This document shows, piece by piece, positions 4,727 through 28,241 of a DNA stretch of 64,000 nucleotides (the first letter of the stretch is position 1; each line of letters opens with the position of its first letter). Under the pieces are notes generated by a model. The model searched no databases. It was not told the origin of the DNA and was given only the letters and a program-made list of their open reading frames with translations. The position numbers and the translations under genes were made by a program. This DNA is from Polyangiales bacterium (GTDB lineage: Bacteria; Myxococcota_A; Polyangia; Polyangiales; Ga0077539): the NCBI GenBank assembly GCA_046351515.1, contig JAXLYJ010000005.1, forward strand, positions 120,318-184,317, given 5' to 3'.

Positions 4727-7863
<3,137 letters not shown>

Positions 7864-7867
<4 letters not shown>

Positions 7868-10068: not shown

Positions 10069-10086
10069 GCGGATCGCGTGCGGCCG

Positions 10087-10600
10087 CGCGGGTGAGGGCC
10101 CATCGGCGCTGCCAATTCGCAGGCCCCACCCGCGCTGCCGCGCGCCGGTTCGCAGGCCCCCACCCGCGCTACCGCGCGCCCGTCTTCGCAGCCCCCACCC
10201 GCGCTACCGCGCGCCCCGCCCCGCAGAGCGAGGGCGGCGGCTCTGCATTGGGAAAACAGCGACGGAATCGAGTTCGTTGATCGCACGGAGACCTTGCGCT
10301 GCAAGGTCTCTTCGGTGCGCGAAGCGGCTCGCGACACGGCGCAACACGACGCAACGCGAACGCTCGGCGCAAACCGTGATCAGCGGAGCCGCTTCGCTCC
10401 GTGAGTGGTCGCTATCGAGGCCATCGAAGCCCTTGCAGAGCAAGGGTTCCCTGCGATCAACGCCGTCAACTCCGTCACTGTTTTCCCAATGCAGAGCCGC
10501 CGCCCTCGCTATGCGGGGGCGGGGCGCGCGGCAGCGCGGGTGGGGGCTGCGAACCGGCAGCGCGGGTGGGGGCTGCGAACCGGCAGCGCGGGTGAAGGCT
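10087..10600. repeat. nested imperfect palindrome built from about seven copies of a 22-nt core plus ~130-bp inverted arms
   Basis: The left arm (10185-10312) and the reverse complement of the right arm (10421-10553) align at about 90% identity. The outer flanks carry tandem units: ttcgcag(g/c)ccccacccgcgc(t/a)(g/a)ccgcgcgcc x3 on the left (10116-10220), mirrored x3 on the right (10526-10600). Each arm contains its own 10-bp hairpin (gagaccttgc..gcaaggtctc). The centre is closed by gaagcggctc (10321)/gagccgcttc (10387). It fills the gap between convergent maiA and the DUF2330 gene. Confidence 0.85.
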
Positions 10601-10698
10601 TCGTCGCTTCGCTCGCTCGCACCAGCGCCGGTGGCGCGATTACTCACTGGGCAGCGCCGCTCGGGACCGCGCGTCCCCTCGTCCCCTCGTTGCGCTCG

Positions 10699-12269: not shown

Positions 12270-12295
12270 GGTGAGTCCTCCGTCGATGAGTGGGT

Positions 12296-14203
12296 TTAGC
12301 GGGCGCGGAGCTTGCGCGCGTCGCCGATACGAATCGTGACCTTCTTCACGTCGAAGTACTCGGCGAGAGGAATGGTCCATTTGCGCGACGCGCCGGTGAT
12401 CGTCTTGAAACCCTGCGCGTCGATCGATCCTTGGGCCTCGATCCAGGCCACGAGCTTCTTTTCGAGCTCGAGCATGGACGCCGCGTCCGCGTAGAACTCG
12501 GGCGAAATCTTCACGATGTCCCCGCGCGCCACGAGGCGGTCGAGCGCCGGCGCGAGGGCCTTGGGCTCGACGCGCAGCGACTGCGCGACCTCGTCGACGC
12601 GCGGAGGCATCACGCCCGCGCTGCAAATCGCCTTGCGAACGGGCTCGAGGTGCGGGACGGCGTCGGGGTCCTTCGGCTTCCATCCGGCGCGGGCGTAGAC
12701 GTCTTGGTCGCGGCTCACCTTGCGATCGGCGACGAGCTTGGCGAGCAGGGCGTCCATCAGCGCGTCGTCCCCGAGGGCTTTGAGCGCGCTGCGCGTGAGC
12801 CCGCGCGAGGCGGGGTTGGCAGAGTGCTCGGCGGAGAGCGACTGAAGAATCTTCTGCGTCACCGGCGCCGCTGCGCTCGCGCTCACCCAGCGCTCTCGCG
12901 TGATCTGCACGAGCCCCGCGGTGGCCATCGCCGCCTCGTCGAGCGTCGCTCCGACGCGCGCCGAGAGCTGCTGGGGAGAGAGCCCTTTGAGCCCCGCGGC
13001 GTCGGACTCGGCGCGCAGTCGAGCGTCGCGATCGTCTGCGTTTTCAGCGACGGATTTCGCTCGCGCGAGCGCGGTGTCGCGCTTCTTCACGCGCTCGGCG
13101 ACCGGACGAATCACCACGCCGCCGCCGAGCGTCGAGCCGAAGCCCGCGAGCGAGGGCGGGCCGCGCAGGACGAAGCGCTCGTTGGGTCGAAGCGCGACGG
13201 CGCTCTCCGTGGTGATGCGCGCGATGGCCTTCGAGCCCGGCTCGAGCGACTCGCCTTCGAGCAGCGCGACCGCGCAGAGCGTGTGCGCGGCGCCGACGGC
13301 GAGCTCGAGCTTGCTGCGGCGTCCGAGCTCGTGACGCGTGCTCGCGAGCAGCGAGACCTCGGCGTCGAAGGCGTAGGTGAGCGCGACCTCTCCTTCGCGC
13401 ATGAGCCACGCGCCGCGCGGGACCTCGCCGCTCTCGATGCCGGCGATGTTGACCGCGACGCGCGTCCCCGCCGAGGCCTGTGTCACAGAATCGCCGTGAA
13501 TTTGCAGGGCGCGCACGCGCACCTCGCGCGCTTCGTCGTCGAGTCCCACCGGCGCGACCACGAGCGAGTCGCCCTCGCCAACGGCGCCGGAGACGAGCGT
13601 TCCGGTCACGACCGTGCCGAAGCCCTTGCGAACGAAGACGCGGTCGATCGGCAAGAGCGTCGGGCCGTCCGAGGCGCGCGGCGCGACCGCTGCGCGGGCG
13701 AGCGCTGCGCGAAGCTCGTCGAGTCCGCGGCCGGTGTGCGCGCTCACCGCGACGATCTCCGCGTTCTGCAAGAACGTCCCCGCCACGGTCTCGCGCACCT
13801 CTTCGATCGCGAGCTCGAGCACGTCGTCCGCGGCGAGGTCGGACTTGCTGAGCGCGATCACTCCCGCGCGAACGCCGACCAGCTCTGCCACCGCGAGGTG
13901 CTCTCGGGTCTGCGGCATCACGCCTTCGTTCGCCGCGACGACGAGCATGCAGAGGTCGAGGCCTCCGGCGCCGGCGATCATCGCGCGGATAAACCTCTCG
14001 TGGCCGGGCATGTCGACGATCGCGGCGCGTCGACCGCCGGGCAGCTCGAGGTGCGCGAAACCGAGCTCGATGGTGATTCCGCGGGATTTTTCTTCGGGCA
14101 AACGATCGGTGTCGACGCCGGTGAGCGCCTTCACGAGAGCGGTCTTGCCGTGATCGATGTGTCCTGCGACGCCGATCACGAGGTCCGAGGGACGAGCGGT
14201 CAT
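12296..14203 (-). CDS. selB: selenocysteine-specific translation elongation factor
   Basis: GTPase motifs [16 protein letters not shown] and SKSDL, followed by a long C-terminal winged-helix-like extension. About 635 aa from ATG 14203 (the track ORF begins at GTG 14233). Confidence 0.85.
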
Positions 14204-14224
14204 GTGCGTGTAGAGTATCTGCCC

Positions 14225-15958
14225 ATGGCACACCGATCGACGCAGTTCTGTCTCTGGATGGCTCCGTTGTTGGCGCTCGCGAGCGCCCGATGCTCACCGC
14301 CGCCGCCGTCGCCGGACGCTGAAGCGTCGGTGAGCGACGCGACCAGTGACATGAGCGCGCCGGACGGCGGCGAGCAGGACGGCTCGATGATCGCCGGTGA
14401 CGCTGGCGCAGACGCTTCTCCCGCGTGGCTCGAGCCGTGGGCGCCCGGGCCGCGAGCGCGTCCTCGACAGGGATTTCTCTGGGGAAGCGCGACGGCGGGC
14501 TATCAGATCGAGGGCCAGCTCGACAACACCGACTGGGCCATCTGGGAGTCGATGGGTCGCATCGTGAACAACGATCGGGCCAACGACGGGCCGCGCTCGT
14601 ACGAGCGATGGATGGACGACGTGAACGCGCTGCGCGAGAGCGGACAGACCGCGTATCGCTTCGGGATCGAGTGGGCGAGGCTGTTTCCGACGCGCGCGAG
14701 CTGGGAGGCGTGTCGCAACGCGACGGGCGACATGGCCGCGAAGGTCGCGACGTGCCGGATGCAAGCGAGCGCGACGGGCAAGGCGTACTACCACCAGCTC
14801 ATCGACGCGCTGCGCGCGAGCACGCCGAGGATCGTCCCGATGGTGACGCTCTATCACTGGACGATGCCGGACTACATCGCTGATCCCCGCATGGATTTTC
14901 GCACGCAGGGATGGATGAACATGCGGATGCGATCGGACATGGCGCTGTACGCCGCGGTCGTCGCGGCCGAGTACGGCGAGACGGTCGACTGGTACGTCAC
15001 GCTCAACGAGCCGATGGTGCACGTGCTCGCGGGCTACCTCGACGGGCGGTTTCCGCCTGGAAGAACGCTGGAGATCGACGGCGCGGTCACCGTGCTGACG
15101 AACATGGTCTACGCGCACGCGGCGATGTACGACGCGATCAAGCTGTTCGATCGCACGACCGCCGAGAGCACGGGGCCGATCAGCCCGACGCAGCCGTCGT
15201 ACGTCTCGATCGCGCATCACATTCGACGGATGTACGGCGCGAACCCCGCGAGCACGATGGACGCGCGCGCGGCGACGAAGGCCGACTGGCTCAATCACAA
15301 GCTCTTCTTCGAGGCGATCGTGCGCGGCAACCTCGATGCCAACGGCGACGGAACCGTGAGCGCCACCGAGCCCACCAACGACCCCGCGCTGCGCGGCCGC
15401 GTCGACTACCTCGGGATCAACTACTACGGGATGACCACGATCCGCGCGAACGCAGGGATTCCGCTGGTCGGAGGGCTGCCTGTGAACGAGGAGCTCGAGC
15501 GCGGGCTGCCCAAGACCGACTTCGGCTGGGACATCTATCCACGCGGCTTCGAAGAGGTGCTCGTCAACTACAGCCGCGAGTACATGCTGCCGATCGCGGT
15601 GACCGAGAACGGGATCGCCGACGCGCGCGACGTGAATCGTCCGCGGTTCATGCTCGAGCACTTCGCGGCGATGTTCTCTGCGATGCAGCGAGGAGCGAAC
15701 GTCGTCGGCTACTTCCACTGGTCGACGGTGGACAACTTCGAGTGGGTGGGAGGCTACTGCCCGCAGTTCGGCTTGTACTCGGTCGATCGAACGAACCCGA
15801 TGCGACCGCGAACGGCGCGTCCGAGCGCGATGCTCTATCGCGACGTGATTCGCTCGGGCGAAGTGACGGACGCGCAGCTCACGATGGCCGCGGCGTACCA
15901 GCATCCTTCGCGCTTCTGCCCGAGCACTGTCATGGCCACCGCCGACGCAGGAATGTAG
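14225..15958 (+). CDS. glycoside hydrolase family 1 beta-glucosidase with a signal peptide and low-complexity linker
   Basis: FLWGSATAGYQIEG, the acid/base motif TLNEP and the nucleophile motif VTENG. The N-terminus MAHRSTQFCLWMAPLLALASARC looks like a signal. Only the last 578 codons of track ORF 12290..15958 are real. Confidence 0.85.
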   Translation: MAHRSTQFCLWMAPLLALASARCSPPPPSPDAEASVSDATSDMSAPDGGEQDGSMIAGDAGADASPAWLEPWAPGPRARPRQGFLWGSATAGYQIEGQLDNTDWAIWESMGRIVNNDRANDGPRSYERWMDDVNALRESGQTAYRFGIEWARLFPTRASWEACRNATGDMAAKVATCRMQASATGKAYYHQLIDALRASTPRIVPMVTLYHWTMPDYIADPRMDFRTQGWMNMRMRSDMALYAAVVAAEYGETVDWYVTLNEPMVHVLAGYLDGRFPPGRTLEIDGAVTVLTNMVYAHAAMYDAIKLFDRTTAESTGPISPTQPSYVSIAHHIRRMYGANPASTMDARAATKADWLNHKLFFEAIVRGNLDANGDGTVSATEPTNDPALRGRVDYLGINYYGMTTIRANAGIPLVGGLPVNEELERGLPKTDFGWDIYPRGFEEVLVNYSREYMLPIAVTENGIADARDVNRPRFMLEHFAAMFSAMQRGANVVGYFHWSTVDNFEWVGGYCPQFGLYSVDRTNPMRPRTARPSAMLYRDVIRSGEVTDAQLTMAAAYQHPSRFCPSTVMATADAGM

Positions 15959-18440: not shown

Positions 18441-18545
18441 GATCTCGAACCCCCGGCAGCATACGCGCTTCTGTGCAAAGTATGAAAAACACGCAAGCTT
18501 CGTTGGCGCCGCGGGGGGCGAGCGGTGCTACACCCTCGGGTCTCG

Positions 18546-19250
18546 ATGAGCGATTTCTACGAAGACGAGGTCGAGCTGCGTCGGTTCGACAGCGCGTTCG
18601 ATGCTGAGTTGGCCTTGGAGTTCGTGCGCGAACACGGCGTGCGCGCGAGGCTCAAGGGCTCTGGAACGACGCACATCCTCGATCGGTTCACGACGGTGGT
18701 GGACCTGCGGCTCATGGTTCCTGCCGGTGAGCGCGAGGCGGGGATGGCCGCGCTCGAAGCGATGGAGCTCGATGAAGACTCCGCCGACGAAGCCGCGCAG
18801 AAGCGGCTCGACGACGAGGCTCGCGGCGGAGCAGCCTACCGTGAACGCCGTGCCAACACGCAGGACGACGCGCCTTCTCCCAAGGATTTTCGCTACCGAA
18901 GCGGCGCGGTGGTGGGCGTCGCGTGGTTCGGCGGAGCGCATTTGAACGCCCGGCAGTCCGTGCTCGGCTGGTTCTTGTTCGCCGTCATGTGGACCTTGCT
19001 GCTCGCCGCTGTGACCACCGGAAAGCCCTGGCTCATCGTGACCTTCACGATGCTCTGGATCTACGACATCGCGCACGGAATTCTGGCGGTGGATCTGCAC
19101 AACGCCGGCAAGCGCGTCGAGCCCAAGATCCAGCTGTTGCACGGCCTGGCGGTGCTGCTCGTCGCCTCGCTCGCGTCGATGGCGCTCGTCGCTGTGCGTC
19201 CTCCACGCAGGCCCGCAGAAGACGCGATGGCTCCGGCGCCGGTCGGGTGA
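18546..19250 (+). CDS. hypothetical membrane protein (soluble N-terminal domain plus TM2-like C-terminal helices)
   Basis: ATG at 18546 (MSDFYEDEVELRRFDS..). The C-terminal part GVAWFGGAHLNARQSVLGWFLFAV.. has 3-4 hydrophobic helices. It ends 53 nt before the radical SAM gene on the same strand. Confidence 0.55.
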   Translation: MSDFYEDEVELRRFDSAFDAELALEFVREHGVRARLKGSGTTHILDRFTTVVDLRLMVPAGEREAGMAALEAMELDEDSADEAAQKRLDDEARGGAAYRERRANTQDDAPSPKDFRYRSGAVVGVAWFGGAHLNARQSVLGWFLFAVMWTLLLAAVTTGKPWLIVTFTMLWIYDIAHGILAVDLHNAGKRVEPKIQLLHGLAVLLVASLASMALVAVRPPRRPAEDAMAPAPVG

Positions 19251-19303: not shown

Positions 19304-20407
19304 ATGGCAACAGCACGGCCCAAGCGATATGCGCTCGCGATCGAACTCACGAGCTACTGCAATCAGAAGTGCGGCTACTGCTACAACGACTTTCGCGAGG
19401 ACGGGGGCAAGTCCGTCGGCGCGCTTCCGACGGAGCAATTGCTCGCGGTCGTGGACAAAGCGCTGACCGAGGTCGAGTTCGATCACGTCACGCTCACCGG
19501 CGGAGAGCCCTTCGCGCGCTCGGACATCTTCGAGGTCATGGACCTCGTGAAGAAGCACGGCGTGGGTCTGCAGATCATTTCGAACGGCGGGATGATCACC
19601 GAGGCGATCGCCAAGCGCCTCGCGCCGTACAAGCCGAGCTTCGTGCAGGTCACGCTCGACGGAGCGAGCAAAGAGCAGCACGAAGCGCACGTGGGCGAGG
19701 GGCACTACGACAAGACCCTGCGCGGCATCGCGCTGCTGAAAATGCACGGCGTCACGGTGTGCGGCTGCATCGTGATCTCTCGAAAGAACGCGAAGGACGT
19801 CGGCGAGATCCTCGATCAGTTTCGGCGGCTCGGGATCAAGAGCGTCGCGCTCTCGCGGTTTTCTCCGTCGGGGTACGCCGCGGCCAACGTCGCTGAGCTG
19901 CTCCCGTCTCGCTCGGAGATGATCACCGCGCTCGAGCAGGCCGAGGCGCGCGGCCGAGACAACAAGATGGACCTGCAAGTGACGATGCCGATGCCGCCGT
20001 GCGTGATCGAGCACAAGGACTATCCGCACGTCCGCTTCGGCGGCTGCCCGATCGGGACCGAGATGCAGGAGTTTGCGCTCGGGCCGAAGGGCGAGCTTCG
20101 CAACTGCACGCTGCACACGGACGTGATCGGCGACGGACAGAGCGAGTCGTTCGCCGCGCTCGTCGAGAGCCCCGCGGTGATGCAGTACCGCGACGTGACG
20201 CCAGAGTTCTGCGAGCCGTGCCCGCACAAGCGATCGTGCGTCGGCGGCTGCGGCGCCTCTGGGGTCGCGGTGCTCGGAAAGCAGAACCCGCTCGATCCCT
20301 TCGTCGCGCAGCACGTGGACGACGCGTTTCGCGCGCAGCTCAAAGCGGCGCGGCGGGGCGAATCGCCGGTGATTCCGGCCAATCGTCTGCGGCGCGCCGC
20401 GGTCTGA
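19304..20407 (+). CDS. radical SAM/SPASM-domain maturase (anSME-like architecture, no RRE)
   Basis: CNQKCGYC (CX3CX2C) at residues ~19-26 and a TGGEP SAM-binding motif. C-terminal auxiliary-cluster region: C-X14-G-X4-C followed by CEPCPHKRSCVGGC (CX2CX5CX3C). The track start at 19295 is TTG; ATG 19304 is preferred. Confidence 0.9.
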   Translation: MATARPKRYALAIELTSYCNQKCGYCYNDFREDGGKSVGALPTEQLLAVVDKALTEVEFDHVTLTGGEPFARSDIFEVMDLVKKHGVGLQIISNGGMITEAIAKRLAPYKPSFVQVTLDGASKEQHEAHVGEGHYDKTLRGIALLKMHGVTVCGCIVISRKNAKDVGEILDQFRRLGIKSVALSRFSPSGYAAANVAELLPSRSEMITALEQAEARGRDNKMDLQVTMPMPPCVIEHKDYPHVRFGGCPIGTEMQEFALGPKGELRNCTLHTDVIGDGQSESFAALVESPAVMQYRDVTPEFCEPCPHKRSCVGGCGASGVAVLGKQNPLDPFVAQHVDDAFRAQLKAARRGESPVIPANRLRRAAV

Positions 20408-20450: not shown

Positions 20451-20975
20451 ATGAGCGAAGACGAGAGCAAACGCGAGCCGAGCGACGAGGGCGAGCGCGA
20501 CGAGGACAGCGAGGATCGCTCGATGATCTTCGCGCGACGCAAGATGCTCGTCTCCGCGGCGCTCGCGGGCGTCGCGATGAGCACGGCGGGGTGCGATCAG
20601 CTCAAGCGCGCGATCGGGATCGGGGCCGACCCGCAGCCGTGTCTCTCTCCACCGGAGCCGCCTCCGCAGGTGTGCCTCGCGTATCGGCCGACCGAGCCGC
20701 AGGCGTGTCTGAGCGTCCCCATTCAGCCGCAGGTGTGCCTGTCGCCGCGCGTCGAAGAGCCGCCTCCCGACGCGGGCGGCGCAGCGGTCGATCCGCTCTC
20801 GGGGATGCGCGACCCCAACGCGATGCCGTGCCTCGCCGCGATGGACCCGCGTCGCGACCCGCCGCGACCACGGGTGTGTTTGTCGCGCGTGCCCTCGCGC
20901 CCTCGCGCCTGTCTCGGAGCGACGCAGAGCGACAACATGTTCAAGGACACCAACGAGTCCGACGACGAGTCGTGA
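20451..20975 (+). CDS. Cys-repeat protein with a Tat-like/lipobox signal; putative substrate of the flanking radical SAM enzymes
   Basis: 174 aa. Acidic N-terminus (residues 1-24), then FARRKMLVSAALAGVAMSTAGC (RR, h-region, lipobox Cys48). Seven P-x-x-C-L-[SAG] motifs follow (Cys64, 75, 86, 96, 127, 143, 154), then an acidic tail QSDNMFKDTNESDDES. GAAGGGAG lies 9 nt upstream of ATG 20451. Alternative start ATG 20523 (M25). Confidence 0.7.
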   Translation: MSEDESKREPSDEGERDEDSEDRSMIFARRKMLVSAALAGVAMSTAGCDQLKRAIGIGADPQPCLSPPEPPPQVCLAYRPTEPQACLSVPIQPQVCLSPRVEEPPPDAGGAAVDPLSGMRDPNAMPCLAAMDPRRDPPRPRVCLSRVPSRPRACLGATQSDNMFKDTNESDDES

Positions 20976-21034: not shown

Positions 21035-23281
21035 ATGACCCGTCCCGTGCGTGTGCTGCTCTTGTGGCCAGGAACCGACGGCGCCGCCGCCGGCAACTTC
21101 GGCGTCCCGCAGCTCGTGTTGCTCGCGACCTACGCGCGCTCGAAGACTGGCGCCAAGATCGACATTCGCGACATCGAGACCGAGCGCGCGTTCGGCGCCG
21201 TCTCGCTGCCTGCGCTGCTCGCGGGCGATCACGGCAGCGGCTACGACGTCATCGCGCTCGGAGTGTATTCGAGCTTCGATTACTTGAAGTGCGTCGCGCT
21301 CGCCGAAGTGGCGCGGCAGCTCTACCCCGAAGCGGTGATTGTTGCGGGCGGCTATCACGCGAGCGCTCGACCGGGCGACATCGTGTACGACGGCTCTCCG
21401 TTCGACGTGTGCATCGTGGGCGAGGGCGAGAAGCCCTTGGTGACCGTGATCGAATCGGTCGCGGGCGGCGCGCCGTTGCGTGGAGAAATCCTCGGCCCCG
21501 AGCCGGTCGACGTGCTCGACGATCTTCCGCCGAGCGACTGGAGCTTTCTCGCTCGCTACCGGTCCATCGCGCGCAAGGTCAACTCGCAAGCGCAGGTGTA
21601 CTTCTCGCGCGGCTGCCCCTTCGACTGCGCGTTCTGCATGGAGCGCGCGAAGCGCGAGGTCTCGTGGCGCGCGCTGTCCATCGAGCGCGCGGTGCAAGAG
21701 ATCCGCTCGCTGCACGAGTTTCTCGATCTGCGAACGTGGACCGTCTACATCGCCGACGCGCTGTTCGGGATGAAGGTCTCGTGGCGCAGGCAGTTTCTCG
21801 AAGCGCTCGCGCGCGAGGCGATTCCGGTCGACAAGTTCTGGCTGCTCATCCGCGTCGACCTCATCGACGAGGTGGATCTCTCGCTGTTTCACCAGGCCAA
21901 CTGCGGGCTCGGATTCGGGCTCGAGTCCGGCGACCCTGCGCACCTCGCGACCATTCGCAAAGCCGGCCGCCTCGACGAGTACCTCGATCGCATGCGCAAC
22001 GTGTCCGCGTGGGCGAGGGAGCACCAGGTCCCTTGGGGAGCGAACGTGATCGTCGGGCACCCGGGCGAGACGCCCTCGTCGATCGAGCGCAGCGCCGCGT
22101 ATTTGAGCGAGCTGTTTCTCGACCCGAAGGGCGTGACGGGATTTCTCTCGGTCGATCCGTTTCGGCTGTATCCCGGCTCGCCGATCGACTCCGAGCGCGG
22201 ACAGTGGGAGGCACGCTTCGGCTGCGTGTTTCATCGGCCGGACTGGTGGCACGACGGCGATCAAGAGTTTCTCGCCGAGTGGGTCGATCCCTCGCGCGAG
22301 CTGACGTACCTCGAGCGCGCGCGCCTGCAGCACCAACACTTCGGTCCCATCCTCTCGCGCATCGAGGACAACTTCGTCTACCGCGGAAAAGCCCGCGAGT
22401 ACTTCGTTCGCGCCATCCGCGATCAGGTCCGCCAGGACCGCGCGGGCATGCGCATGCACTACCTCGATCGCTACTACGCGTGGCACCGCTACCTCGGTCG
22501 AAGCAGCAAGGGGGACGCGCATCGCCGCGCGGATCGCCACCTCGCGCAGACCGCGCGCGAGCTGCGAGAGCGGCACCGCGCCTCGCTCTTGGAGTACGCG
22601 TCTCGACCGGGCGCCGAGCCATCGCGCGCCGCCGTCGTCGTGAGCGCGGTGCTCGACGCGCGCCGCGAGCTCTTCGTTCCGCTCGATCGCGTGATCGAGA
22701 GCGTGAAGGACGAGCCCGTCGCGCTCGACGCGAGCGGCGAGAGCACGGTGAGCGCGATGCACGCGTACGCTAGGACCTTCGCGCTCGCGGACATCACCGA
22801 GGGCGATCGTGTCTTGGATCTCGGCTCGGGCACCGGCTACGGCTGCGCTGTCCTCCGATCGCTCGTCGGCGAGGACGGAGCCGTGTGGGGCGTCGAGGTG
22901 GACCCCGCGCTCGCCGCGAAAGCGCAGAAAAACTGCGGCGAATTCGCCAACGTCGCCGTGCGCGCGGGCGACGCGATCGACCCCGCGCACTGGGGCGTCG
23001 AGCCCTCGCAGCTCACCAAAGTGTGCGGCGGATTCGCGCTCGAAGACATCCCCGAGGCGTGGTCGGTCCTGCCCGAGGGCTGCGTGATCGTCGCGCCGAT
23101 CGGCGGGTCGGACGAGCAGCGATTGGTGCGCGCGACCAAGCGTGGGCAGCGGTGGTTGCGCGAGCCGTTCGACGCCGTGGTGTACGTGCGTCGACGAACC
23201 TCGGACGAAGTGCAGCCCGCGGTCGCCGCGGCCACGCGCGTCGAGCAGAGCGCGCGCAAGCACCTGCCGATCGCGACGTGA
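21035..23281 (+). CDS. fusion protein: B12-binding domain, radical SAM core and protein-L-isoaspartate O-methyltransferase-like domain
   Basis: 748 aa from ATG 21035. The N-terminal VRVLLLWPG..VIALGVYSS..VIVAGGYHAS resembles a B12-binding Rossmann domain. CPFDCAFC lies at residues 194-201. The C-terminal ~190 aa (RRELFVP..STVSAMHAYARTFALADITEGDRVLDLGSGTGYGCAVL..VWGVEVDP..VIVAPIG) match the PCMT/PIMT pattern. Confidence 0.85.
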   Translation: MTRPVRVLLLWPGTDGAAAGNFGVPQLVLLATYARSKTGAKIDIRDIETERAFGAVSLPALLAGDHGSGYDVIALGVYSSFDYLKCVALAEVARQLYPEAVIVAGGYHASARPGDIVYDGSPFDVCIVGEGEKPLVTVIESVAGGAPLRGEILGPEPVDVLDDLPPSDWSFLARYRSIARKVNSQAQVYFSRGCPFDCAFCMERAKREVSWRALSIERAVQEIRSLHEFLDLRTWTVYIADALFGMKVSWRRQFLEALAREAIPVDKFWLLIRVDLIDEVDLSLFHQANCGLGFGLESGDPAHLATIRKAGRLDEYLDRMRNVSAWAREHQVPWGANVIVGHPGETPSSIERSAAYLSELFLDPKGVTGFLSVDPFRLYPGSPIDSERGQWEARFGCVFHRPDWWHDGDQEFLAEWVDPSRELTYLERARLQHQHFGPILSRIEDNFVYRGKAREYFVRAIRDQVRQDRAGMRMHYLDRYYAWHRYLGRSSKGDAHRRADRHLAQTARELRERHRASLLEYASRPGAEPSRAAVVVSAVLDARRELFVPLDRVIESVKDEPVALDASGESTVSAMHAYARTFALADITEGDRVLDLGSGTGYGCAVLRSLVGEDGAVWGVEVDPALAAKAQKNCGEFANVAVRAGDAIDPAHWGVEPSQLTKVCGGFALEDIPEAWSVLPEGCVIVAPIGGSDEQRLVRATKRGQRWLREPFDAVVYVRRRTSDEVQPAVAAATRVEQSARKHLPIAT

Positions 23282-23293
23282 AAGGGCGCTGGC

Positions 23294-24751
23294 GTGTCGC
23301 AGGACGAGTTCTCGCTGAGTGCGCTGCTCGATGACGAGACCGATGGCGCGCGCGACGGCCTCGTCTTCGAGGGCGAGCGGCTTCGATGGAGCGAGGTCGC
23401 GACGCGCGCCCTGCGGCTCGGAGCCAAGATCGAGCGCGCCAACGGCGGTCGCGCGCGGCGAGTGGCGCTACGCGCGAGCAATCGACTCGAGACCGCGCTC
23501 GCGCTGTACGCGATGTTCGACCGGGGGATCACCGTCGTTCCGCTGCACCCGCGGCTGACGGACGCCGAGGCCGCGGCGCTCGCCGACGACGCCGAGTGCG
23601 CGCTCCGGCTCGACGACGCCTCGCTCGACGCGCTCATTCGAAGCGACGAAGCGCCGCTCGACCCTCGATGGACACACGAAATCAAGATCGACCCCGAGGC
23701 GCCGCTCGCCGTGCTGTACACCTCGGGCACCACCGGTCGGCCCAAGGGCGCGGTGCTCTCGCGCCGCGCGTTCGTCGCCAGCGCCCGCGCGAGCGAGGTG
23801 AACCTGCCGTGGAGCGCGCGGGACCGTTGGCTCTTGTGCCTCCCGCTCTGCCACGTCGGCGGCCTCTCGGTGCTCACGCGGTGCTTGTTCGCGAGGCAAG
23901 GCGTGGTGCTGCAGCGAAAGTTCGACGAGCGCGCGGTGCTCGACGCGATCGAGCGCGAGGGGGTGACGATCGCGAGCTTCGTTCCGACGATGATGCATCG
24001 GCTGCTCGAGGCGGACTCGCGCGGCGCGCTCGCGGCGTTGCGCGCGGCGCTCTTGGGCGGGGCCGCGACGTCGACCGCGCTGCTGCGCGCGTGCGCCGAG
24101 CGCTCGATCCACGCGCGAACGACGTACGGGCTCACCGAAGCGTGCTCGCAAGTGAGCACGCAGGGCGAGCGCGATTGGAGCACGGTCGAGCTCGGCAGCG
24201 GCGCACCGCTCGCGGCGACAGAGCTCTGCGCGCTGCGCGAAGACGGGACTCGGTGCGAGCACGACGAGGTCGGCGCGCTCGTCCTGCGCGGACCGACGCT
24301 CTTCTCGGGCTATCTGCACCACGAGCCTCGGGCGCGCGAGAGCTGGTTTTCGACCGGCGATTTCGGGTTCTTCGACGAGCGAGGACGCCTGCACGTCGTG
24401 GCGCGCAGGACCGACCTGATCGTGACGGGCGGCGAAAACGTCTACCCCCTCGAGGTCGAGCGCGCGCTCGACGGGATCGAAGGCGTGCGCGCCTCACTCG
24501 TGTTCGGCGTCGATGATCCGCGCTGGGGGCAGGTCGTGGCGTGCGCCCTGGTGATCGATGAGCGATTCTGTCCCGACCGTTTCGCGGTGAAATGCGCGGA
24601 GATGCTCGCGCCCCACAAGCGACCGCGGCTGTTCGCGCCGTGCGAGGCGCTGCCGCTGACCGCGGCGAACAAGCCCGATCGGCGCGCGGCGCGAGAGCGG
24701 TTTTCCTCGCAGCTCGAGCCGGTCCGCTATCGCGCATCCCCGAACCGCTGA
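23294..24751 (+). CDS. AMP-dependent synthetase/ligase (o-succinylbenzoate-CoA ligase MenE-like)
   Basis: YTSGTTGRPKGAV, TTYGLTEACSQV, FSTGDFG and GGENVYPLEVE. About 485 aa. GTG start 12 nt after the preceding stop. Confidence 0.8.
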   Translation: MSQDEFSLSALLDDETDGARDGLVFEGERLRWSEVATRALRLGAKIERANGGRARRVALRASNRLETALALYAMFDRGITVVPLHPRLTDAEAAALADDAECALRLDDASLDALIRSDEAPLDPRWTHEIKIDPEAPLAVLYTSGTTGRPKGAVLSRRAFVASARASEVNLPWSARDRWLLCLPLCHVGGLSVLTRCLFARQGVVLQRKFDERAVLDAIEREGVTIASFVPTMMHRLLEADSRGALAALRAALLGGAATSTALLRACAERSIHARTTYGLTEACSQVSTQGERDWSTVELGSGAPLAATELCALREDGTRCEHDEVGALVLRGPTLFSGYLHHEPRARESWFSTGDFGFFDERGRLHVVARRTDLIVTGGENVYPLEVERALDGIEGVRASLVFGVDDPRWGQVVACALVIDERFCPDRFAVKCAEMLAPHKRPRLFAPCEALPLTAANKPDRRAARERFSSQLEPVRYRASPNR

Positions 24752-24945: not shown

Positions 24946-25149
24946 GCTTCGTCGCTCGATTTGCAGGGCGAATCGTCGGCGTTGCTTTCACTCTGGCACG
25001 CGCGGGCGAAGCGTCAAGTCGAGAGGGAAGCATTCTGCTCTCTCGATGGGTTACAACGGTGCGCGCGTTCGGTCGTCGTCCGCTGCGAGGGCAGCGATGA
25101 TGGGCGAGCGCGGATCGCAGCGCCTCTCAGACTCTCAAGGAATCTCCTC

Positions 25150-26253
25150 GTGGATCGTCGTCGTATCGCCATCACTCTCGCTCGCGTGCTCGCGCTCGTC
25201 GGGCTCGTGGTCTCCGCGGCGCTCATCATCGAGTACGCGATGCCCGAGCCCACGCTCTGCGGTCCCGGCGGCGGGTGCACCGCCGTCCGCGCGTGCTGGG
25301 AGCAGCGCGTGAAGTGGTTTTCTCTTCCGTGGTTCGGGCTCGTCTCGTTCGGCGCCGCGCTGAGCGCGCTGCTGCTCGTGCCCAAAGACAAGGCGAGCAA
25401 GCTCTTGCCTGCGCTGGGGGCGCTCTCTGCGCTCGGCGGCGCGACGCTGATCGCGCTGCAGCTCGGGATGTGCCACTCGTGGTGCAAGTTCTGTATGGTG
25501 ACGGATTCGAGCGCGATTTTGCTGGGCGCGGCGCTCTTGTTCGGCCGCGACGCGTACGAGCCCGCCTCGCCGACGCAGCGGTGGCTCTTCGGCGGCGGCG
25601 CGGTGCTGACCGCGTGCGTGGCGATGTTGAGCGCGCCCCCTGCGAGCACGGGCGGCGGCGGGACGGGCGGCGATTCGTCGCGCGGACCGCGCGCTCAGTA
25701 CGTCGCGGTCTTGCCGGGGCCGGTCGCGCGCGAGCAGCGCGACGGCGTGGTGACCATCGTCGAGTTCGCTGACTTCGAGTGTCCGTTTTGTCGCAGGCAA
25801 CACGCGGTGCTCTCGTCGGTGATCGAGCGCTATCACGGACGCGTGCGGCTCGTGCGCAAGCAGCTCCCGTTGACGGGGATTCACCCGCACGCCGAAGACG
25901 CGGCGAAGGCCGCGCTGTGCGCAGAGGAGCTCGGTCGCGGCGAAGCGATGGCCGATCGACTCTTTCGCGCGGAGGCAGAGCAGCTCACGGCCGACGGGAC
26001 GACGGCGATCGCGCGCGAGCTCGGCCTGGACGAACGCGCGTTTCGCGAGTGCGTCGCCAACGATCGAACGCGCAGTCACATCGCGAGCGACCGCAACGCC
26101 GCGCACGAGTGCGGCGTGCAGGGGCTGCCGACGATGTTCATCGGGCACGAGCGGTTCGACGGCCTCGTGGACGAAGAGGCGCTTCGCGAGAGCATCGAGC
26201 ACGCGCTGCACCCCGATGCAGGCGCGGGCGTGAGCAGCGCGGACGGGGGCTGA
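25150..26253 (+). CDS. VKOR-domain membrane protein fused to a DsbA-like thioredoxin domain
   Basis: GTG at 25150 is preceded by AAGGAA. The VKOR cysteines CGPGGGC and CKFC sit within four or five TM helices. The C-terminal periplasmic domain has FECPFC plus LPTMFIG. Confidence 0.85.
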   Translation: MDRRRIAITLARVLALVGLVVSAALIIEYAMPEPTLCGPGGGCTAVRACWEQRVKWFSLPWFGLVSFGAALSALLLVPKDKASKLLPALGALSALGGATLIALQLGMCHSWCKFCMVTDSSAILLGAALLFGRDAYEPASPTQRWLFGGGAVLTACVAMLSAPPASTGGGGTGGDSSRGPRAQYVAVLPGPVAREQRDGVVTIVEFADFECPFCRRQHAVLSSVIERYHGRVRLVRKQLPLTGIHPHAEDAAKAALCAEELGRGEAMADRLFRAEAEQLTADGTTAIARELGLDERAFRECVANDRTRSHIASDRNAAHECGVQGLPTMFIGHERFDGLVDEEALRESIEHALHPDAGAGVSSADGG

Positions 26254-26298: not shown

Positions 26299-27792
26299 TC
26301 AGCGGTCGGTTGCAGCGAGGGTTCGATCGGATCGCGATCGGCGGCGCGCCACGAGCGCGGCGGCTGCGGCGAGGGTGAGGGCCGCGAGGGGAGCGCGGGA
26401 GCGACCGCGAGCGGGCGTGCTGCACGCGCAGCCGTCGCCGGTGATGAACTGCGATGTGGCTGCGTCGCGAGCGGCGTCGCGGGCGCTGTCGGGCGCGCTC
26501 GCGTCGCTCGCATCGACGACGCCCGAGTCCATCACGACCGGCCGCGCGACGCCCCGGCCGCGCGCGGTGACGTACACCGTCGGGGTGTCGGGGTCCGACG
26601 TGACGAGCGGAACGCGGGTTTCGAACGCGCCCTCGCTGCTCGGCGCAAAGCGCATCTCGACCGCGCGCATCGCTCGAACGGGCACGGCGATGCGCGGCTC
26701 GACCCAGGCGAAGGGCGCGCTGTCGATGTCCGTCGATCGCAGCACGTCGAGCGTGGCGCCGCCGCGATTGTCGATGGTGACCGAGCGCGTCGCGCTCTCG
26801 CCGACGAAGACGTCGCCGAACTCGATGACCGACGGGAGCGGCGCGATGTCGGGCAGCTCGAAGCGCACGCGCTGCGGGTCGAAGAGCCACGGCCGCGCAG
26901 GGGTGTTGATGGGCACGGGAACATCGACGATGGGGATGTCCCAGCGACGGCCGAGCAACGAGACGTAGAGCGACGGCGTGACGGTGATCGTGACGCTCTG
27001 ATCGACCAGGCCTTCGAGCCGCGGAGCGAGCTCGACGAACGGGCCGCCTTCGAAGGGGAGGGTGATGCGCTCGACGCTCTCGGTGATGGCGTCGGGGGCG
27101 GGCGCGAAGGAGATGCGCGTCGAGCGGTAGCCGGTCTCGAGCGAGGCCGAGGCGGCGAAGCTGAGCCCGCCGGAGATTCCTGGGATGGGGATGAGCGAGT
27201 CGGTGAGCGAGACGTCGGCGATGCGCTGACGCATGGTGCTGCCGCGGACGCTCGTGCGCGCCCAGCCCCAAGGGTCGAAGTTGCCGCGCGCGGTCGAGCG
27301 AAAGTCCACCTGCGGAACGAAGGGGATGTTTCCTTCCCAATCGTAGGTCGTCGCGCCGATCACGAGGTGCAGTCGGACGCTCGAGCGAAAGACGATCCCG
27401 TAGTCCGACTCGATCGAGGCGCTCTGCGCCGGTCCTGGCGGCGCGGCGACGGACATCGCGCGAGGCCACGAAGCAGCGAGCGATCCTCCCGCGCGAATCT
27501 CCGTGTGCCCGACGAACGCCGCTCGAAGCCGCACTTGCACGGGCGATCCGGCGGGGATCCACGACGTGTCGTAGTCGAACTCGACCGGCAGCCCCTCGCG
27601 CTTGACGAACTGAATCGGCGCGACCTGACAGCCGAGCGCGCTCGCGACGCACGCTCTCGCAGGGATCGCCGCGTCTGCTCCCGCGTCGGCTCCCGCGTCC
27701 TGCGCAGCCGCGCTCTGCGCGACGCACAGAGTGCCCACCAGCGTGAGCGCGGTGATCGCGCCTCGCAGCGAAGAAAGCGACGCAACGTGCAT
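26299..27792 (-). CDS. secreted protein with a MYXO-CTERM-type C-terminal sorting tail
   Basis: Signal peptide MHVASLSSLRGAITALTLVGTLCVAQSAAAQ. The C-terminus GDGCACSTPARGRSRAPLAALTLAAAAALVARRRS has the layout Gly/Cys motif, TM helix, basic tail. Confidence 0.7.
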   Translation of the reverse strand: MHVASLSSLRGAITALTLVGTLCVAQSAAAQDAGADAGADAAIPARACVASALGCQVAPIQFVKREGLPVEFDYDTSWIPAGSPVQVRLRAAFVGHTEIRAGGSLAASWPRAMSVAAPPGPAQSASIESDYGIVFRSSVRLHLVIGATTYDWEGNIPFVPQVDFRSTARGNFDPWGWARTSVRGSTMRQRIADVSLTDSLIPIPGISGGLSFAASASLETGYRSTRISFAPAPDAITESVERITLPFEGGPFVELAPRLEGLVDQSVTITVTPSLYVSLLGRRWDIPIVDVPVPINTPARPWLFDPQRVRFELPDIAPLPSVIEFGDVFVGESATRSVTIDNRGGATLDVLRSTDIDSAPFAWVEPRIAVPVRAMRAVEMRFAPSSEGAFETRVPLVTSDPDTPTVYVTARGRGVARPVVMDSGVVDASDASAPDSARDAARDAATSQFITGDGCACSTPARGRSRAPLAALTLAAAAALVARRRSRSDRTLAATDR

Positions 27793-27830
27793 GGGCTCGA
27801 CGCTACCAGAAGAGCCGCGCGCTTCGCCGA

Positions 27831-28241
27831 CTACAGCTCTGCCGCGCGCTCGTCGAACCACGCGAGCACCGCGGACAGGTCGCGATGCTTGTCGAACACG
27901 GGCCCGAGGTGCGCGAGCTGTCGCGCCCGCTCGTCGCTCTTCTCAGCGGTGAAGAACGCGATTTTCACCGACGAAATCGCCGCTCGAAGCCGCTCGGCCA
28001 CCGCGGGCCCGTCGACCGCTCCGCCCAGGTCGACGTCGAGCAGGACCGCGTGCAGGGGAGGATCCGCGCCCATTCGGCCAACAAACAAGTCGAGGTCGCT
28101 GAAGCACTCGACCAAGACCCCTCGCAACCCCGCTTGTTTGCGTACCTGACGAAGCGCGACGACGCTGTCATCGAGGTACGCCAATCCGCTGCGAATCTGC
28201 AGTTCGGAGGGCGTGATGGTCGAGTCGTCGGCAGCGGACAT
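27831..28241 (-). CDS. single-domain response regulator (receiver only)
   Basis: YLDDS..VLLDVDL..FFTAE..FDK matches the spacing of REC acidic-pocket, phospho-acceptor, Thr and Lys positions. The start is uncertain (ATG 28241 vs 28355). Confidence 0.6.
   Translation of the reverse strand: MSAADDSTITPSELQIRSGLAYLDDSVVALRQVRKQAGLRGVLVECFSDLDLFVGRMGADPPLHAVLLDVDLGGAVDGPAVAERLRAAISSVKIAFFTAEKSDERARQLAHLGPVFDKHRDLSAVLAWFDERAAEL

Follow-up and report, generated by a model that had tools for sequence, protein, structure and literature searches.

A Cys-Leu repeat protein encoded between two radical-SAM enzymes of a Polyangiales bacterium, a putative multi-site substrate

A gene for a 174-residue protein with seven P-x-x-C-L-[SAG] motifs lies between the genes for a SPASM radical-SAM enzyme and a fusion of B12-binding, radical-SAM and PCMT domains in a 64 kb stretch of DNA from a Polyangiales bacterium, which is referred to here as the window. 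Judging from the gene neighbourhood, the repeat protein may be considered, with a probability of about 0.55, an envelope lipoprotein that serves as a multi-site substrate of both flanking enzymes. The protein is one of a large group of small, envelope-targeted Myxococcota proteins that make up an undescribed family, and its Cys-Leu repeat pattern is far beyond chance. The genes of the cassette are closely packed and share a strand, separated by 53, 43, 59 and 12 nt, and a promoter and terminator scan placed no terminator-like site between them and was otherwise uninformative. The features considered are listed below; all but the last are in the window.

18525..19250, + strand: membrane protein (~235 aa, likely ATG 18546), a clade-restricted accessory 5' of the radical-SAM gene
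19304..20407, + strand: radical-SAM/SPASM enzyme, putative first maturase (367 aa; PF04055, 89.5 bits)
20451..20975, + strand: P-x-x-C-L repeat protein gene, putative substrate (174 aa, start M1; GC3 0.86)
20451..20522, + strand: acidic N-terminal extension, residues 1-24 (net charge -8)
20511..20594, + strand: conserved N-terminal module E21-C48, putative twin-arginine lipoprotein signal (EDRxxIxARR, hydrophobic segment, STAG-C48)
20631..20918, + strand: repeat region, seven P-x-x-C-L-[SAG] motifs in Pro-rich linkers (Cys 64, 75, 86, 96, 127, 143, 154)
20925..20972, + strand: acidic C-terminal tail ending DDES, conserved in the close clade
21035..23281, + strand: B12-binding, radical-SAM and PCMT fusion, putative second maturase (748 aa; PF02310, PF04055, PF01135)
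23294..24751, + strand: AMP-forming ligase, MenE-like, a clade-restricted accessory (PF00501, PF13193)
L183 15027-15470, - strand: family homologue in Nannocystaceae bacterium ST9 (GCA_048320885.1)

The repeat protein and its family

The open reading frame at 20451-20975 is a coding frame. The GC content at its codon positions 1/2/3 is 0.70/0.55/0.86, resembling that of the adjacent genes, and the overlapping frames have GC3 values of 0.60 and 0.71. A database protein that is 100% identical is annotated as 'hypothetical protein U0269_09230 [Polyangiales bacterium]', and scans of the 174-residue protein against Pfam and NCBIfam returned no family. An earlier sequence-only reading of this DNA had quoted the translation exactly, including M25 as the ATG at 20523, and had described the seven motifs, the positions and spacings of their Cys residues and the two acidic tails as they are found here.

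That reading had also offered M25 as a possible start, and there is some appeal in it, as GAGGA lies 7 nt upstream of that ATG and an acidic peptide preceding a signal sequence is unusual. The start at M1 has its own Shine-Dalgarno-like AAGGGAG 9 nt upstream of 20451, and conservation across homologues decides for it. The MSEDExKR...EDR amino terminus is kept in an alignment of relatives P0002-P0007, homologues carry V, S or L in place of M25, and the indels in the acidic extension relative to the L001, L015 and L004 copies are all multiples of three; the start is thus assigned to M1 and that at M25 is rejected. The acidic extension may instead be a recognition element for the maturases, which was the other option of that reading. 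With a GC3 of 0.875 over codons 1-24, a segment before the RR pair that is general in the family (RR begins at about residue 21 on average) and net negative in 79% of its members, and an architecture common to 509 cluster representatives, it is highly improbable that the gene was mis-called, either because it initiates at M25 or because it is not translated.

Apart from Cys48, the protein contains seven Cys residues, each followed by Leu (7/7). The motifs are, in order, PQPCLS, PQVCLA, PQACLS, PQVCLS, AMPCLA, PRVCLS and PRACLG, and their Cys residues are spaced by 11, 11, 10, 31, 16 and 11 residues. When residues 49-174 were shuffled 200,000 times, no shuffle contained seven Cys-Leu pairs (maximum five) and none contained six P-x-x-C-L motifs. 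No other open reading frame among the six frames of the window has three or more such motifs. Tandem Repeats Finder detected no DNA array at the period of the peptide motif in the repeat region. As a result, a recent expansion at the DNA level was ruled out and the repeats are maintained at the level of the protein. The AF2 model of the repeat region is coil with a pLDDT of ~50 (pTM = 0.19), which rules out a folded repeat domain. The region is therefore predicted to be disordered, a state that would suit a substrate needing to thread into a radical-SAM active site.

The family, which is uncurated, comprises 509 cluster representatives from Myxococcota. Its members present an acidic amino terminus, an (E)DRxAILxRRxxF[IV]AxALAG module, a lipobox-like Cys 17-22 residues past the RR pair (mode 19), and a repeat region of 2-9 P-x-[PVA]-C-L motifs within variable, disordered linkers. 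Among 666 repeat-region motifs from 142 cluster representatives, Leu follows Cys in 647 (97%), Pro occupies position -3 in 85%, and P, V or A occupies position -1 in 93%. The linkers vary freely in length and composition, with the 5-residue unit remaining fixed. This conservation of Cys-Leu and of the flanking Pro among homologues points to a real gene with a real repeat, and to a P-x-x-C-L motif that is under selection.

The regularity suggested by the window protein did not extend to its relatives. Instead of a conserved repeat number at a spacing of ~11 residues, members range from 2 to 9 repeats, and the median distance between motifs is 16 (5-95% range 8-45). A proposed echo of the formylglycine motif C-x-[PA]-x-R in two repeats was half correct for the window protein, where CLAYR fits and CLSPR does not because its Pro stands at +3. 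As only 1/7 motifs in the window protein and 8/710 in the family fit the pattern, the formylglycine motif was rejected on family statistics. From the motif logo of the family, there is no conserved Asp or Asn as a target of the PCMT type, and there are no conserved cleavage motifs flanking the repeat units.

Ten diverse relatives of the repeat protein were scanned against Pfam and NCBIfam with no significant family identified. In two members (P0094 and P0009), the family module makes up the N-terminal half of a larger envelope protein with a TonB_C-like AgmX/PglI domain. A DNA pattern of two QPCL units with a gap matched 120 metagenome loci, of which only L149 and L164 hold true members; the remaining matches were due to chance or to unrelated 'LPDNLLPQPCLW' repeats. 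Literature searches brought up no specific report on the P-x-x-C-L motif, on radical-SAM systems of Myxococcota or on lipoprotein precursors of radical-SAM enzymes. A cultured carrier of the family is Nannocystaceae bacterium ST9.

The N-terminal module E21-C48 contains the segment FARRKMLVSAALAGVAMSTAGC, which terminates at Cys48. Alignments A1 and A3 show no variation at R29, R30 and C48, and an HMM of the 34-residue module alone recovers relatives at E~1e-14. In the AF2 model, a single helix runs across residues 17-55. The sequence-only reading had proposed a Tat-like lipoprotein signal, which is partly supported: the RR pair is invariant, its distance to the Cys is fixed, and the segment after it is moderately hydrophobic (median Kyte-Doolittle hydropathy of 1.3), as expected of a Tat h-region. 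A PROSITE-type lipobox pattern is satisfied by the window protein (MSTAG-C48) and by 110/170 relatives. On the other side, the lipobox is non-canonical in the remaining 60/170, among them a subclade with AEGC or AEAC (Glu at -2), and the Tat HMM TIGR01409 did not match the window protein at E<=0.01, with two relatives scoring near its cutoff of 16.7 (P0055, 18.5; P0068, 16.2). The Pfam model UCR_Fe-S_N, which is also a Tat signal, matched 2/28 family members weakly. The N-terminal extension moves the lipobox-like Cys to position 48, beyond the usual range of 15-35. The module possibly doubles as a recognition element. At the opposite end of the protein, the last 16 residues carry a net charge of -5, and a DDES or DD..E ending is kept in the close clade (P0001-P0008, P0010-P0019) and not in the wider family.

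The enzyme pair and its coupling to the family

The 367-residue enzyme has a radical-SAM core that begins at about residue 10, with the CX3CX2C cluster motif present as CNQKCGYC. Its three Cys residues (C19, C23 and C26) are invariant in 36 homologues, as are the SPASM auxiliary Cys residues C233, C248, C268, C303, C306, C312 and C316, which include a CxxCx5Cx3C motif. A SPASM-type sequence, CEPCPHKRSCVGGC, is found in the enzyme; the Pfam SPASM model returned no score at E<=0.01. No curated NCBIfam family was reached at its cutoff, with ScmE the best (106 bits against a cutoff of 400), and the scores for MftC, PqqE and WgkB were no stronger than those for the tetrapyrrole enzymes NirJ and AhbD. 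A non-peptide substrate is therefore possible. The full SPASM Cys set suggests an enzyme of the peptide-modifying type, as do its closest solved relatives, PqqE by sequence (best PDB match, E=2e-16, full length) and anSME, SuiB and SkfB by fold, all of which have peptides or unfolded proteins as substrates. A search for an RRE or PqqD-like domain, covering the enzymes and the ORFs around them, gave no hit even when the E-value was relaxed.

The fusion protein scores above the Pfam cutoffs for all three domains (PF02310, 34.2 against 32.1; PF04055, 50.6; PF01135, 79.8 against 20.3). CPFDCAFC is present in its translation, in keeping with a B12-dependent radical-SAM domain. No curated NCBIfam subfamily reached its cutoff, and the middle region of the protein matched no significant family in Pfam or NCBIfam. 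A search against the PDB identified the PIMT 2yxe (E=9e-16), with which the PCMT domain aligns over its full length, and the B12 radical-SAM enzymes 9ccb, AprD4 and TokK. Since the score for the TIGR00080 equivalog is 84.5 bits against a cutoff of 159, the domain is considered PCMT-fold rather than housekeeping Pcm. At least 865 protein clusters of the fusion were found, and every organism name given was from Myxococcota or Deltaproteobacteria. The fusion has no described role.

Two further genes of the cassette appear to be accessories restricted to a clade. The MenE-like ligase begins 12 nt past the stop codon of the fusion and falls short of MenE itself (TIGR01923, 292 against 330; PRK03640, 316 against 556); it follows the fusion in L001, L004, L016 and L017 and is absent from that position in the other loci. 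The membrane protein at 18525-19250 has no Pfam or NCBIfam family at E<=0.01, with a weak DUF2007-like match at its amino terminus (E=0.073 over the entire profile). It has homologues at the equivalent position in L001 (70% identity), L004 (41%), L015, L016 and L017. A recurrent partner is a protein family of ~270 residues, called X270. The proteins u385 and u241 were considered as remote homologues of X270 and rejected (hhalign probability <1%), and none of the three matched a significant family in Pfam or NCBIfam.

The sequence-only reading had alluded to maturases of the repeat protein, and comparative genomics supports a link to the flanking enzymes. Across Polyangiales and Nannocystaceae, the SPASM radical-SAM and fusion genes are conserved as a pair. 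In nearly all loci with at least 55% radical-SAM identity and sufficient downstream sequence, the fusion gene follows the radical-SAM gene directly or with only target genes, i.e. members of the repeat family, in between; L049 is the exception. The radical-SAM gene led to 43 distinct loci; in 22 of these, a family member lies no more than 1.5 kb from the pair, and the number rises to 27 at 5 kb. The density of family members is 10.4 per 100 kb near the pair compared to 0.99 per 100 kb beyond 5 kb, an enrichment that overstates the number of independent events since common ancestry connects many of the 43 loci.

Several gene orders are represented. The target lies between both enzyme genes in the window, L001, L004, L011, L027, L038 and others, is convergent immediately downstream of the pair in L023, L026, L039, L044 and L184, and is present in four tandem copies at L036. 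The coupling is also found in Nannocystaceae bacterium ST9 and in an Enhygromyxa MAG. In a sister clade of the radical-SAM enzyme (48-49% identity) that has no fusion gene, a target-like gene adjoins (L047, L048). At these same two loci, the Pro at -3 is missing. Compared to the L004 and L001 copies, the window proteins are 84-92% identical for the radical-SAM enzyme, 73-85% for the fusion and ~51% for the target. Enzymes that evolve far more slowly than their target are what is usually seen with a maturase whose substrate carries short recognition motifs. About one third of the enzyme loci have no family member within 10 kb; L016 and L017 have none nearby despite 88% radical-SAM identity and an otherwise identical cassette. 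Conversely, P0008 (L006), P0009 (L007), P0028 (L186) and P0044 (L185) are family members far from any radical-SAM gene. With the enzymes linked to the family in this manner, it is reasonable to read the repeat protein as a substrate of maturases.

Proposed role and competing explanations

In the preferred reading, the SPASM radical-SAM enzyme would act in the cytoplasm on the invariant Cys-Leu of every motif. The likeliest chemistry would be abstraction of a hydrogen at or next to the Cys, resulting in a thioether, another cross-link or an oxidized Cys. The fusion would then methylate the repeat protein, its B12 domain by C-methylation, possibly at the Pro at -3, and its PCMT domain by O- or S-methylation. 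The N-terminal module would serve both as a handle for the maturation machinery and as a twin-arginine export signal. Once the protein is exported, cleavage at Cys48 would release the signal and a lipid anchor would be attached. Additional family members lie apart from the enzymes in many genomes, so the pair probably modifies paralogues in trans as well. A more ambitious form of this proposal is tentative: a phylum-restricted system in which the radical-SAM pair, with its undescribed fusion, would act in trans on a whole paralogue family of exported lipoproteins and place a modification of a new kind at every P-x-x-C-L. Candidate products are a Cys-Leu or Cys-Pro cross-link with C-methylation, or a reactive aldehyde that cross-links the envelope. 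The acidic DRxAILxRR module would be a handle for a maturase or chaperone as well as a Tat signal, and the machinery would include X270 and an MBL-fold protein, both recurrent partners.

The same genes could also be explained by an ordinary Pro-rich envelope lipoprotein or spacer whose Cys residues are free periplasmic thiols that form intermolecular disulfides, bind metal or buffer redox state. In that case, the radical-SAM pair would act on a small molecule, lipid or cofactor, and the neighbourhood would reflect co-regulation or a lipoprotein that carries or scaffolds the product. The many family members that are not beside the enzymes, and the third of enzyme loci without a nearby member, would be accommodated, as would members that head larger TonB_C-like AgmX/PglI envelope proteins, as expected of a linker module. 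The proximity of the radical-SAM enzyme to NirJ and AhbD and the MenE-like aryl/acyl-AMP ligase in the cassette of this clade point in the same direction. A VKOR-DsbA thiol oxidoreductase 4 kb downstream in the window is also in agreement, but it is not conserved beside the cassette in L001 or L004. This joint explanation is nevertheless unlikely. A tenfold local enrichment through at least four gene orders in two Myxococcota orders is hard to explain without a direct functional link, the strict Leu after Cys and Pro at -3 are unnecessary for disulfides or simple metal binding, and the PCMT domain is of a protein-modifying type.

Alternatively, the repeat protein may be a multi-core precursor from which modified P-x-x-C-L units are excised as a small Cys-Leu-derived molecule or cofactor, following the logic of PQQ and mycofactocin. 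Hypervariable linkers around a fixed 5-residue unit are typical of such precursors, and PqqE is the best PDB sequence match to the enzyme. An MBL-fold protein recurs beside the enzyme pair or orphan family members (L010, L013, L183, L184, L185), and PqqB is of the same fold class; the MBL gene is, however, absent from the window. It would be odd for a precursor destined for excision to keep a signal for export and lipid anchoring, and no protease is conserved among the cassettes compared. Together with the lack of conserved cleavage motifs around the units and the folded C-terminal domain on some members, this renders excision improbable. Very unlikely is a formylglycine-type system, where an anSME-like enzyme oxidizes each motif Cys to a C-alpha-formylglycine aldehyde. 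It would agree with the presumed target, a Cys within a short linear motif of an export-signal protein, and with an enzyme that matches anSME in length (~370 residues) and in lacking an N-terminal RRE domain. The AF2 model of the enzyme, whose C-terminal 55 residues are of low confidence, is also closest in the PDB to anSME (4k36-4k39, E~2e-15, TM 0.67-0.68), but SuiB and SkfB are nearly as close with E-values within 100-fold. The sequence match to anSME is restricted to the radical-SAM core (residues 15-179, E~8e-8), and anSME is not among the best 25 NCBIfam matches. The C/S-x-P/A-x-R motif is nearly absent as noted, no sulfatase domain was found by Pfam or NCBIfam, and the B12 and PCMT domains would be left without a role.

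Comparison with known systems and significance

The preferred reading, modification of a lipoprotein at repeated Cys motifs, has parallels among systems that depend on multinuclear non-heme iron oxidases (MNIO enzymes). In DAG-RiPPs, which are RiPP-lipoprotein hybrids, modification occurs in the cytoplasm and is followed by lipidation, and in oxazolins, a lipoprotein is modified at the individual sites of its repeated EGKCG Cys motifs (PMC13056109, PMC11252979). As the modifying enzymes carry no signal, in DAG-RiPPs and in the window alike, modification would precede export as well as lipidation. DAG-RiPPs have, as the window protein putatively does, a lipoprotein-type signal with a conserved Cys in place of a classical leader, and oxazolins have a short Cys motif repeated along the protein, of which each copy is modified. 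The concept agrees and the enzyme class does not. DAG-RiPPs use MNIO enzymes and the window cassette has a SPASM radical-SAM enzyme with a B12 radical-SAM/PCMT fusion, the motif is P-x-x-C-L as opposed to EGKCG or CPxCGxG, and the signal has an invariant RR pair with a long acidic extension, unlike that of DAG-RiPPs. Radical SAM is not mentioned in the cited paper on MNIO lipoprotein RiPPs.

From an enzymatic perspective, the nearest parallels are SPASM maturases. Those that act on repeated short motifs include PapB (CX3D), NxxcB (NxxC), TvgB (TVGG) and the triceptide cyclophane synthases, as well as the radical-SAM/SPASM maturases of Haft's ACGX-repeat and CXXX-repeat systems. As in the window, one enzyme is encoded beside a substrate with several motifs of 3-5 residues in which one residue is invariant, and in NxxC the partner residue at -3 from Cys has the register of the conserved Pro in P-x-x-C-L. 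Neither Pro nor Leu, the conserved partners of the motif Cys, is a known thioether acceptor. The models of these systems score below cutoff for the window enzyme (ACGX, 82 against 400; StsB, 91 against 625; AlbA, 68 against 850), which also differs by the lack of an RRE domain. The substrate is different as well, in that it has 100-250 residues and a putative export signal and that each genome encodes many paralogues, and the B12-dependent radical-SAM/PCMT fusion is an almost constant partner. PapB, NxxcB and the TvgB-type enzyme are named in PMC12373016, PMC11851443 and PMC9062424.

The window enzyme is similar in size to anSME, which has the closest solved fold (TM 0.67, a resemblance only), and an RRE domain is likewise absent from anSME and from some other enzymes. 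Furthermore, anSME works in trans on several proteins, each at a linear-motif Cys and before the protein is exported. Its substrate motif is absent here, there is no sulfatase and the sequence similarity is confined to the radical-SAM core. The PqqE/PqqA and MftC/MftA systems provide the best PDB sequence match (PqqE) and two of the top NCBIfam matches, with scores well below cutoff (MftC, 97.5 against 265; PqqE, 96 against 381). In contrast to those systems, a PqqD- or MftB-like partner is missing, the substrate is putatively exported and the repeated motif is different. Regarding the fusion, FxLD lanthipeptide and ATP-grasp/graspetide systems also encode a PCMT-fold methyltransferase with a peptide-modifying enzyme. 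The RiPP PCMT models TIGR04364 and TIGR04188 score 56.8 and 45 bits, both far below their cutoffs, and the PCMT domain of the fusion is joined to a B12 radical-SAM enzyme and is nearer to housekeeping PIMT (TIGR00080, 84.5 bits) than to the RiPP PCMTs. Unlike the substrates of those systems, the P-x-x-C-L protein has no visible conserved Asp or Asn.

If the coupling between the family and the enzyme pair is real, it would represent a widespread and uncharacterized protein-modification system, with hundreds of substrate clusters and at least 690 and at least 865 clusters of the two enzymes, in hosts (Polyangiales and Nannocystaceae) that are known for complex envelopes and natural products. With seven sites in 174 residues, the window protein would be a clean multi-site substrate for new radical-SAM chemistry on Cys-Leu. 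If the proposed role is true, it would extend RiPP-lipoprotein hybrids from iron oxidases to radical-SAM chemistry and provide a function for the B12 radical-SAM/isoaspartate-methyltransferase fusion.

The repeat-protein gene and its cassette

The repeat protein is encoded in a cassette of five genes separated by intergenic gaps of 53, 43, 59 and 12 nt, with no terminator-like site found between them in the window:

18525-19250 (+): membrane protein with a DUF2007-like domain (weak match), first gene of the cassette
19304-20407 (+): radical-SAM enzyme, 367 aa, upstream of the repeat-protein gene
20451-20975 (+): repeat-protein gene
21035-23281 (+): fusion of B12-binding, radical-SAM and full-length PCMT domains, 748 aa, downstream of the repeat-protein gene
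23294-24751 (+): MenE-like AMP ligase, next after the fusion, scoring under the MenE cutoffs

The translation of the repeat-protein ORF matches the sequence quoted in the sequence-only reading exactly and is 100% identical to 'hypothetical protein U0269_09230 [Polyangiales bacterium]'. In a window of 69% GC, the GC content at codon positions 1, 2 and 3 is 0.70, 0.55 and 0.86, like that of adjoining genes. Since the two overlapping frames have GC3 values of 0.60 and 0.71, the ORF is the coding frame, and together with its conserved homologues this supports a real gene. Cysteines are found at positions 48, 64, 75, 86, 96, 127, 143 and 154. All seven beyond position 48 are followed directly by Leu, and six of them are preceded by Pro at -3. 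Neither seven Cys-Leu pairs (maximum five) nor six P-x-x-C-L motifs arose in 200,000 composition-preserving shuffles of residues 49-174. No further six-frame ORF of the window carries three P-x-x-C-L motifs. A DNA-level tandem repeat was not found in the gene; thus, the periodicity is maintained on the level of the protein. The AF2 model presents a single helix (residues 17-55) and is otherwise coil (mean pLDDT 54, pTM 0.19), as expected of a disordered chain and not of a folded repeat domain.

The 367-aa radical-SAM enzyme is of SPASM type because it has a CX3CX2C motif and seven invariant C-terminal Cys including CX2CX5CX3C. It reached no curated family cutoff, the best matches (ScmE, MftC, PqqE, WgkB, StsB and NirJ) scoring ~85-106 bits versus cutoffs of 265-650. 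The nearest solved sequence is PqqE (E=2e-16), and the AF2 model (pLDDT 79.6) is nearest to anSME (TM 0.67), followed by SuiB and SkfB.

The same five-gene cassette is present in locus L001 and, with different flanks, in the more distant MAG locus L004. Identity to these is 84-92% for the radical-SAM enzyme, 73-85% for the B12-PCMT fusion and about 51% for the repeat protein. The conserved core of the cassette consists of the two enzyme genes. A gene for SelB, the selenocysteine-specific elongation factor (12296-14233, -), is 86% identical to its L001 copy, making the 92% of the radical-SAM enzyme notable. A VKOR-DsbA fusion, a thiol-disulfide oxidoreductase (24961-26253, +), lies 200 nt past the AMP ligase. 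Since it is not conserved beside the cassette in L001 or L004, a tie to the Cys-rich repeat protein is doubtful. A choice-of-anchor D domain protein with a weak MYXO-CTERM sorting signal (26299-27861, -) fits the Myxococcota origin of the window.

Architecture of the family

No Pfam or NCBIfam model matched the repeat protein or ten diverse relatives. A profile search of 1.84 billion cluster representatives recovered 509 at E<=1e-3, 37 of them at E<=1e-10. The members are 80-250 aa in length and share one plan: an acidic N-terminus, the conserved module '(E)DRxAILxRRxxF[IV]AxALAG', a Cys located 17-22 residues past the RR (mode 19), and two to nine copies of P-x-[P/V/A]-C-L. The linkers are Pro-rich, Asp/Ala/Gly-rich or Gly-rich and highly variable in length. 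Among 666 repeat-region Cys from 142 family representatives, Leu follows 647 (97%), Pro occupies -3 in 85%, P, V or A occupies -1 in 93%, Gln occupies -2 in 41% and Ser occupies +2 in 43%. The conservation of Cys-Leu and its flanking Pro points to selection on the motif. The seven repeats at ~11-residue spacing emphasized in the sequence-only reading did not hold as a family character, as copy number varies and the median spacing is 16 residues (5-95% range 8-45). The alignments indicate that the conserved unit is the five-residue motif, not the period or the number seven.

Two relatives, P0094 and P0009 (L007 8001-8621), carry a C-terminal TonB_C-like AgmX/PglI domain after the repeats; thus, the repeat region can form the N-terminal part of larger envelope proteins. 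A DNA pattern scan also returned metagenome contigs L120, L155 and L182 with long tandem 'LPDNLLPQPCLW' repeats. None has the N-terminal module and they look unrelated to the family.

R29, R30 and C48 are invariant in the family alignments, and a PROSITE-type lipobox pattern fits the repeat protein (…AMSTAG-C) and 110 of 170 relatives. One subclade has the non-canonical AEGCDW in place of the lipobox, with Glu at -2. The curated Tat-signal model did not match the repeat protein, placed one relative just above its cutoff and another just below, and Pfam gave weak hints at most. The twin-arginine lipoprotein signal proposed earlier is thus a reasonable but unproven reading. A 34-residue HMM of the module reaches distant members at E~1e-14. 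Conservation well above that of ordinary signal peptides suggests that the module may also be recognised by something specific.

Translation from M25 had been considered as one explanation for the odd acidic extension. All close homologues (46-79% identity) start with MSEDE[ST]KR and carry the acidic stretch, V or S stands in place of M25, and indels of 12 and 9 nt in the DNA alignment keep the frame. In the wider family, the RR begins at a median of ~ residue 21, and the preceding segment is net negative in 79% of members (median charge -4). Translation from M1 is well supported by these comparisons, and the extension is a family feature, not an annotation artefact.

Coupling to the enzyme pair

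Both enzymes are very widespread in Myxococcota: the radical-SAM enzyme forms at least 690 clusters and the fusion at least 865. Polyangiaceae, Nannocystaceae, Enhygromyxa and the cultured Nannocystaceae bacterium ST9 are among the named sources. Nearly all loci that reach >=55% radical-SAM identity and extend far enough downstream carry the fusion gene behind the radical-SAM gene, and the two often overlap; the exception is L049, where the radical-SAM gene is split. When 43 distinct enzyme loci were scanned with the module HMM, a family member was found <=1.5 kb from the pair in 22 and <=5 kb in 27. Gene density per 100 kb fell from 10.4 near the pair to 2.6 between 1.5 and 5 kb and to 0.99 at greater distances. 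Shared ancestry inflates the counts. Some loci have one or two family genes between the enzyme genes and others have one convergent gene directly downstream. In L036, four tandem P-x-x-C-L genes (6335-7941, -) directly follow the B12-PCMT gene. Tandem genes in two copies were also observed in L030, L035 and L184. Even so, that the coupling persists through several gene orders and in two orders of the phylum argues for a direct functional link, in line with the sequence-only reading.

A sister radical-SAM clade (48-49% identity) occurs without the fusion gene and still adjoins a target-like gene (L047 2451-2738, +; L048 5538-6230, +). These targets keep C-L-S, lack Pro at -3 (GYCLS, RVCLS, SFCLS, RQCLS) and have Gly-rich linkers. 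These two loci hint at a possible link between Pro at -3 and the B12-PCMT enzyme.

The coupling has limits. About one-third of enzyme loci lack any family member out to 10 kb. Among these, the close relatives L016 and L017 (~9950-15000; 88% radical-SAM identity) keep the cassette as u385-u241-radical-SAM-B12-PCMT-AMP ligase, u385 and u241 being the ORFs that precede the radical-SAM gene, with no repeat-protein gene found between the enzymes or within 10 kb. Conversely, L006, L007, L185 and L186 hold members distant from any radical-SAM gene, and in a single MAG P0007 lies in a cassette and P0044 is an orphan. The latter adjoins an MBL-fold gene whose family flanks the enzyme pair elsewhere. 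These observations would be most simply reconciled if the enzymes served a family of paralogues in trans, as anSME serves sulfatases.

Two partner genes recur, both absent from the window. In Nannocystaceae-type loci, one or two family genes are co-transcribed with an unnamed family of about 257-299 aa, here X270. Across the loci (L010 12926-13801, -; L011 10968-11867, -; L183 14246-15019, -; L184 12207-13067, -; L048 6233-6985, -; L051 5603-6487, +), X270 is repeatedly co-transcribed with P-x-x-C-L genes or sits directly behind the enzyme pair. It has no Pfam or NCBIfam match and no relation to u385 or u241 by hhalign, and a role as dedicated chaperone or partner is conceivable. The other recurring gene encodes an MBL-fold protein (Lactamase_B_3, about 455 aa), which in Nannocystaceae-type loci is divergent from the adjacent enzyme pair (L010 5591-6925, -; L013 3654-5039, -; L183 7506-8867, -; L184 6431-7816, -). 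The L185 copy (6505-7884, -) instead adjoins an orphan family member, and its MAG is the one with the L004 cassette.

Putative chemistry and relation to known systems

In the proposed pathway, the SPASM enzyme would modify the disordered repeat region in the cytoplasm at each Cys-Leu and the B12 radical-SAM and PCMT domains would add methyl groups. The RR signal would then direct export of the product, and Cys48 would carry the lipid anchor. The leading guess for the chemistry is a thioether or other cross-link within the motif, whose Pro-to-Cys register is that of the NxxC ranthipeptides; anSME-type Cys oxidation is a weaker alternative. The formylglycine motif, which two repeats had seemed to echo, fits one of seven here and 8 of 710 in the family and was rejected. 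The family motif statistics contain no conserved Asp or Asn that would explain the PCMT domain.

PapB, NxxcB and TvgB are well-known examples of radical-SAM/SPASM enzymes that act on repeated short motifs; the enzyme described here matched none of their family models. The nearest concept is the RiPP-lipoprotein hybrid or 'DAG-RiPP', described in 2026 for MNIO enzymes. The oxazolins come close to it: there a lipoprotein carries repeated EGKCG motifs and every copy is modified (PMC13056109, PMC11252979). The DAG-RiPP work concerns MNIO enzymes and 'radical SAM' is absent from its text, whereas the present cassette encodes radical-SAM enzymes. No report of the P-x-x-C-L motif or of the SPASM and B12/PCMT enzyme pair was found in the literature searched. 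Thus, the family appears to be an undescribed, radical-SAM-linked group of lipoprotein-like putative multi-site substrates, with the B12 radical-SAM/PCMT fusion as an apparently undescribed, almost constant partner. As a widespread system that has no name yet and can be tested directly with three neighbouring genes, it should be of high interest to radical-SAM and RiPP specialists.
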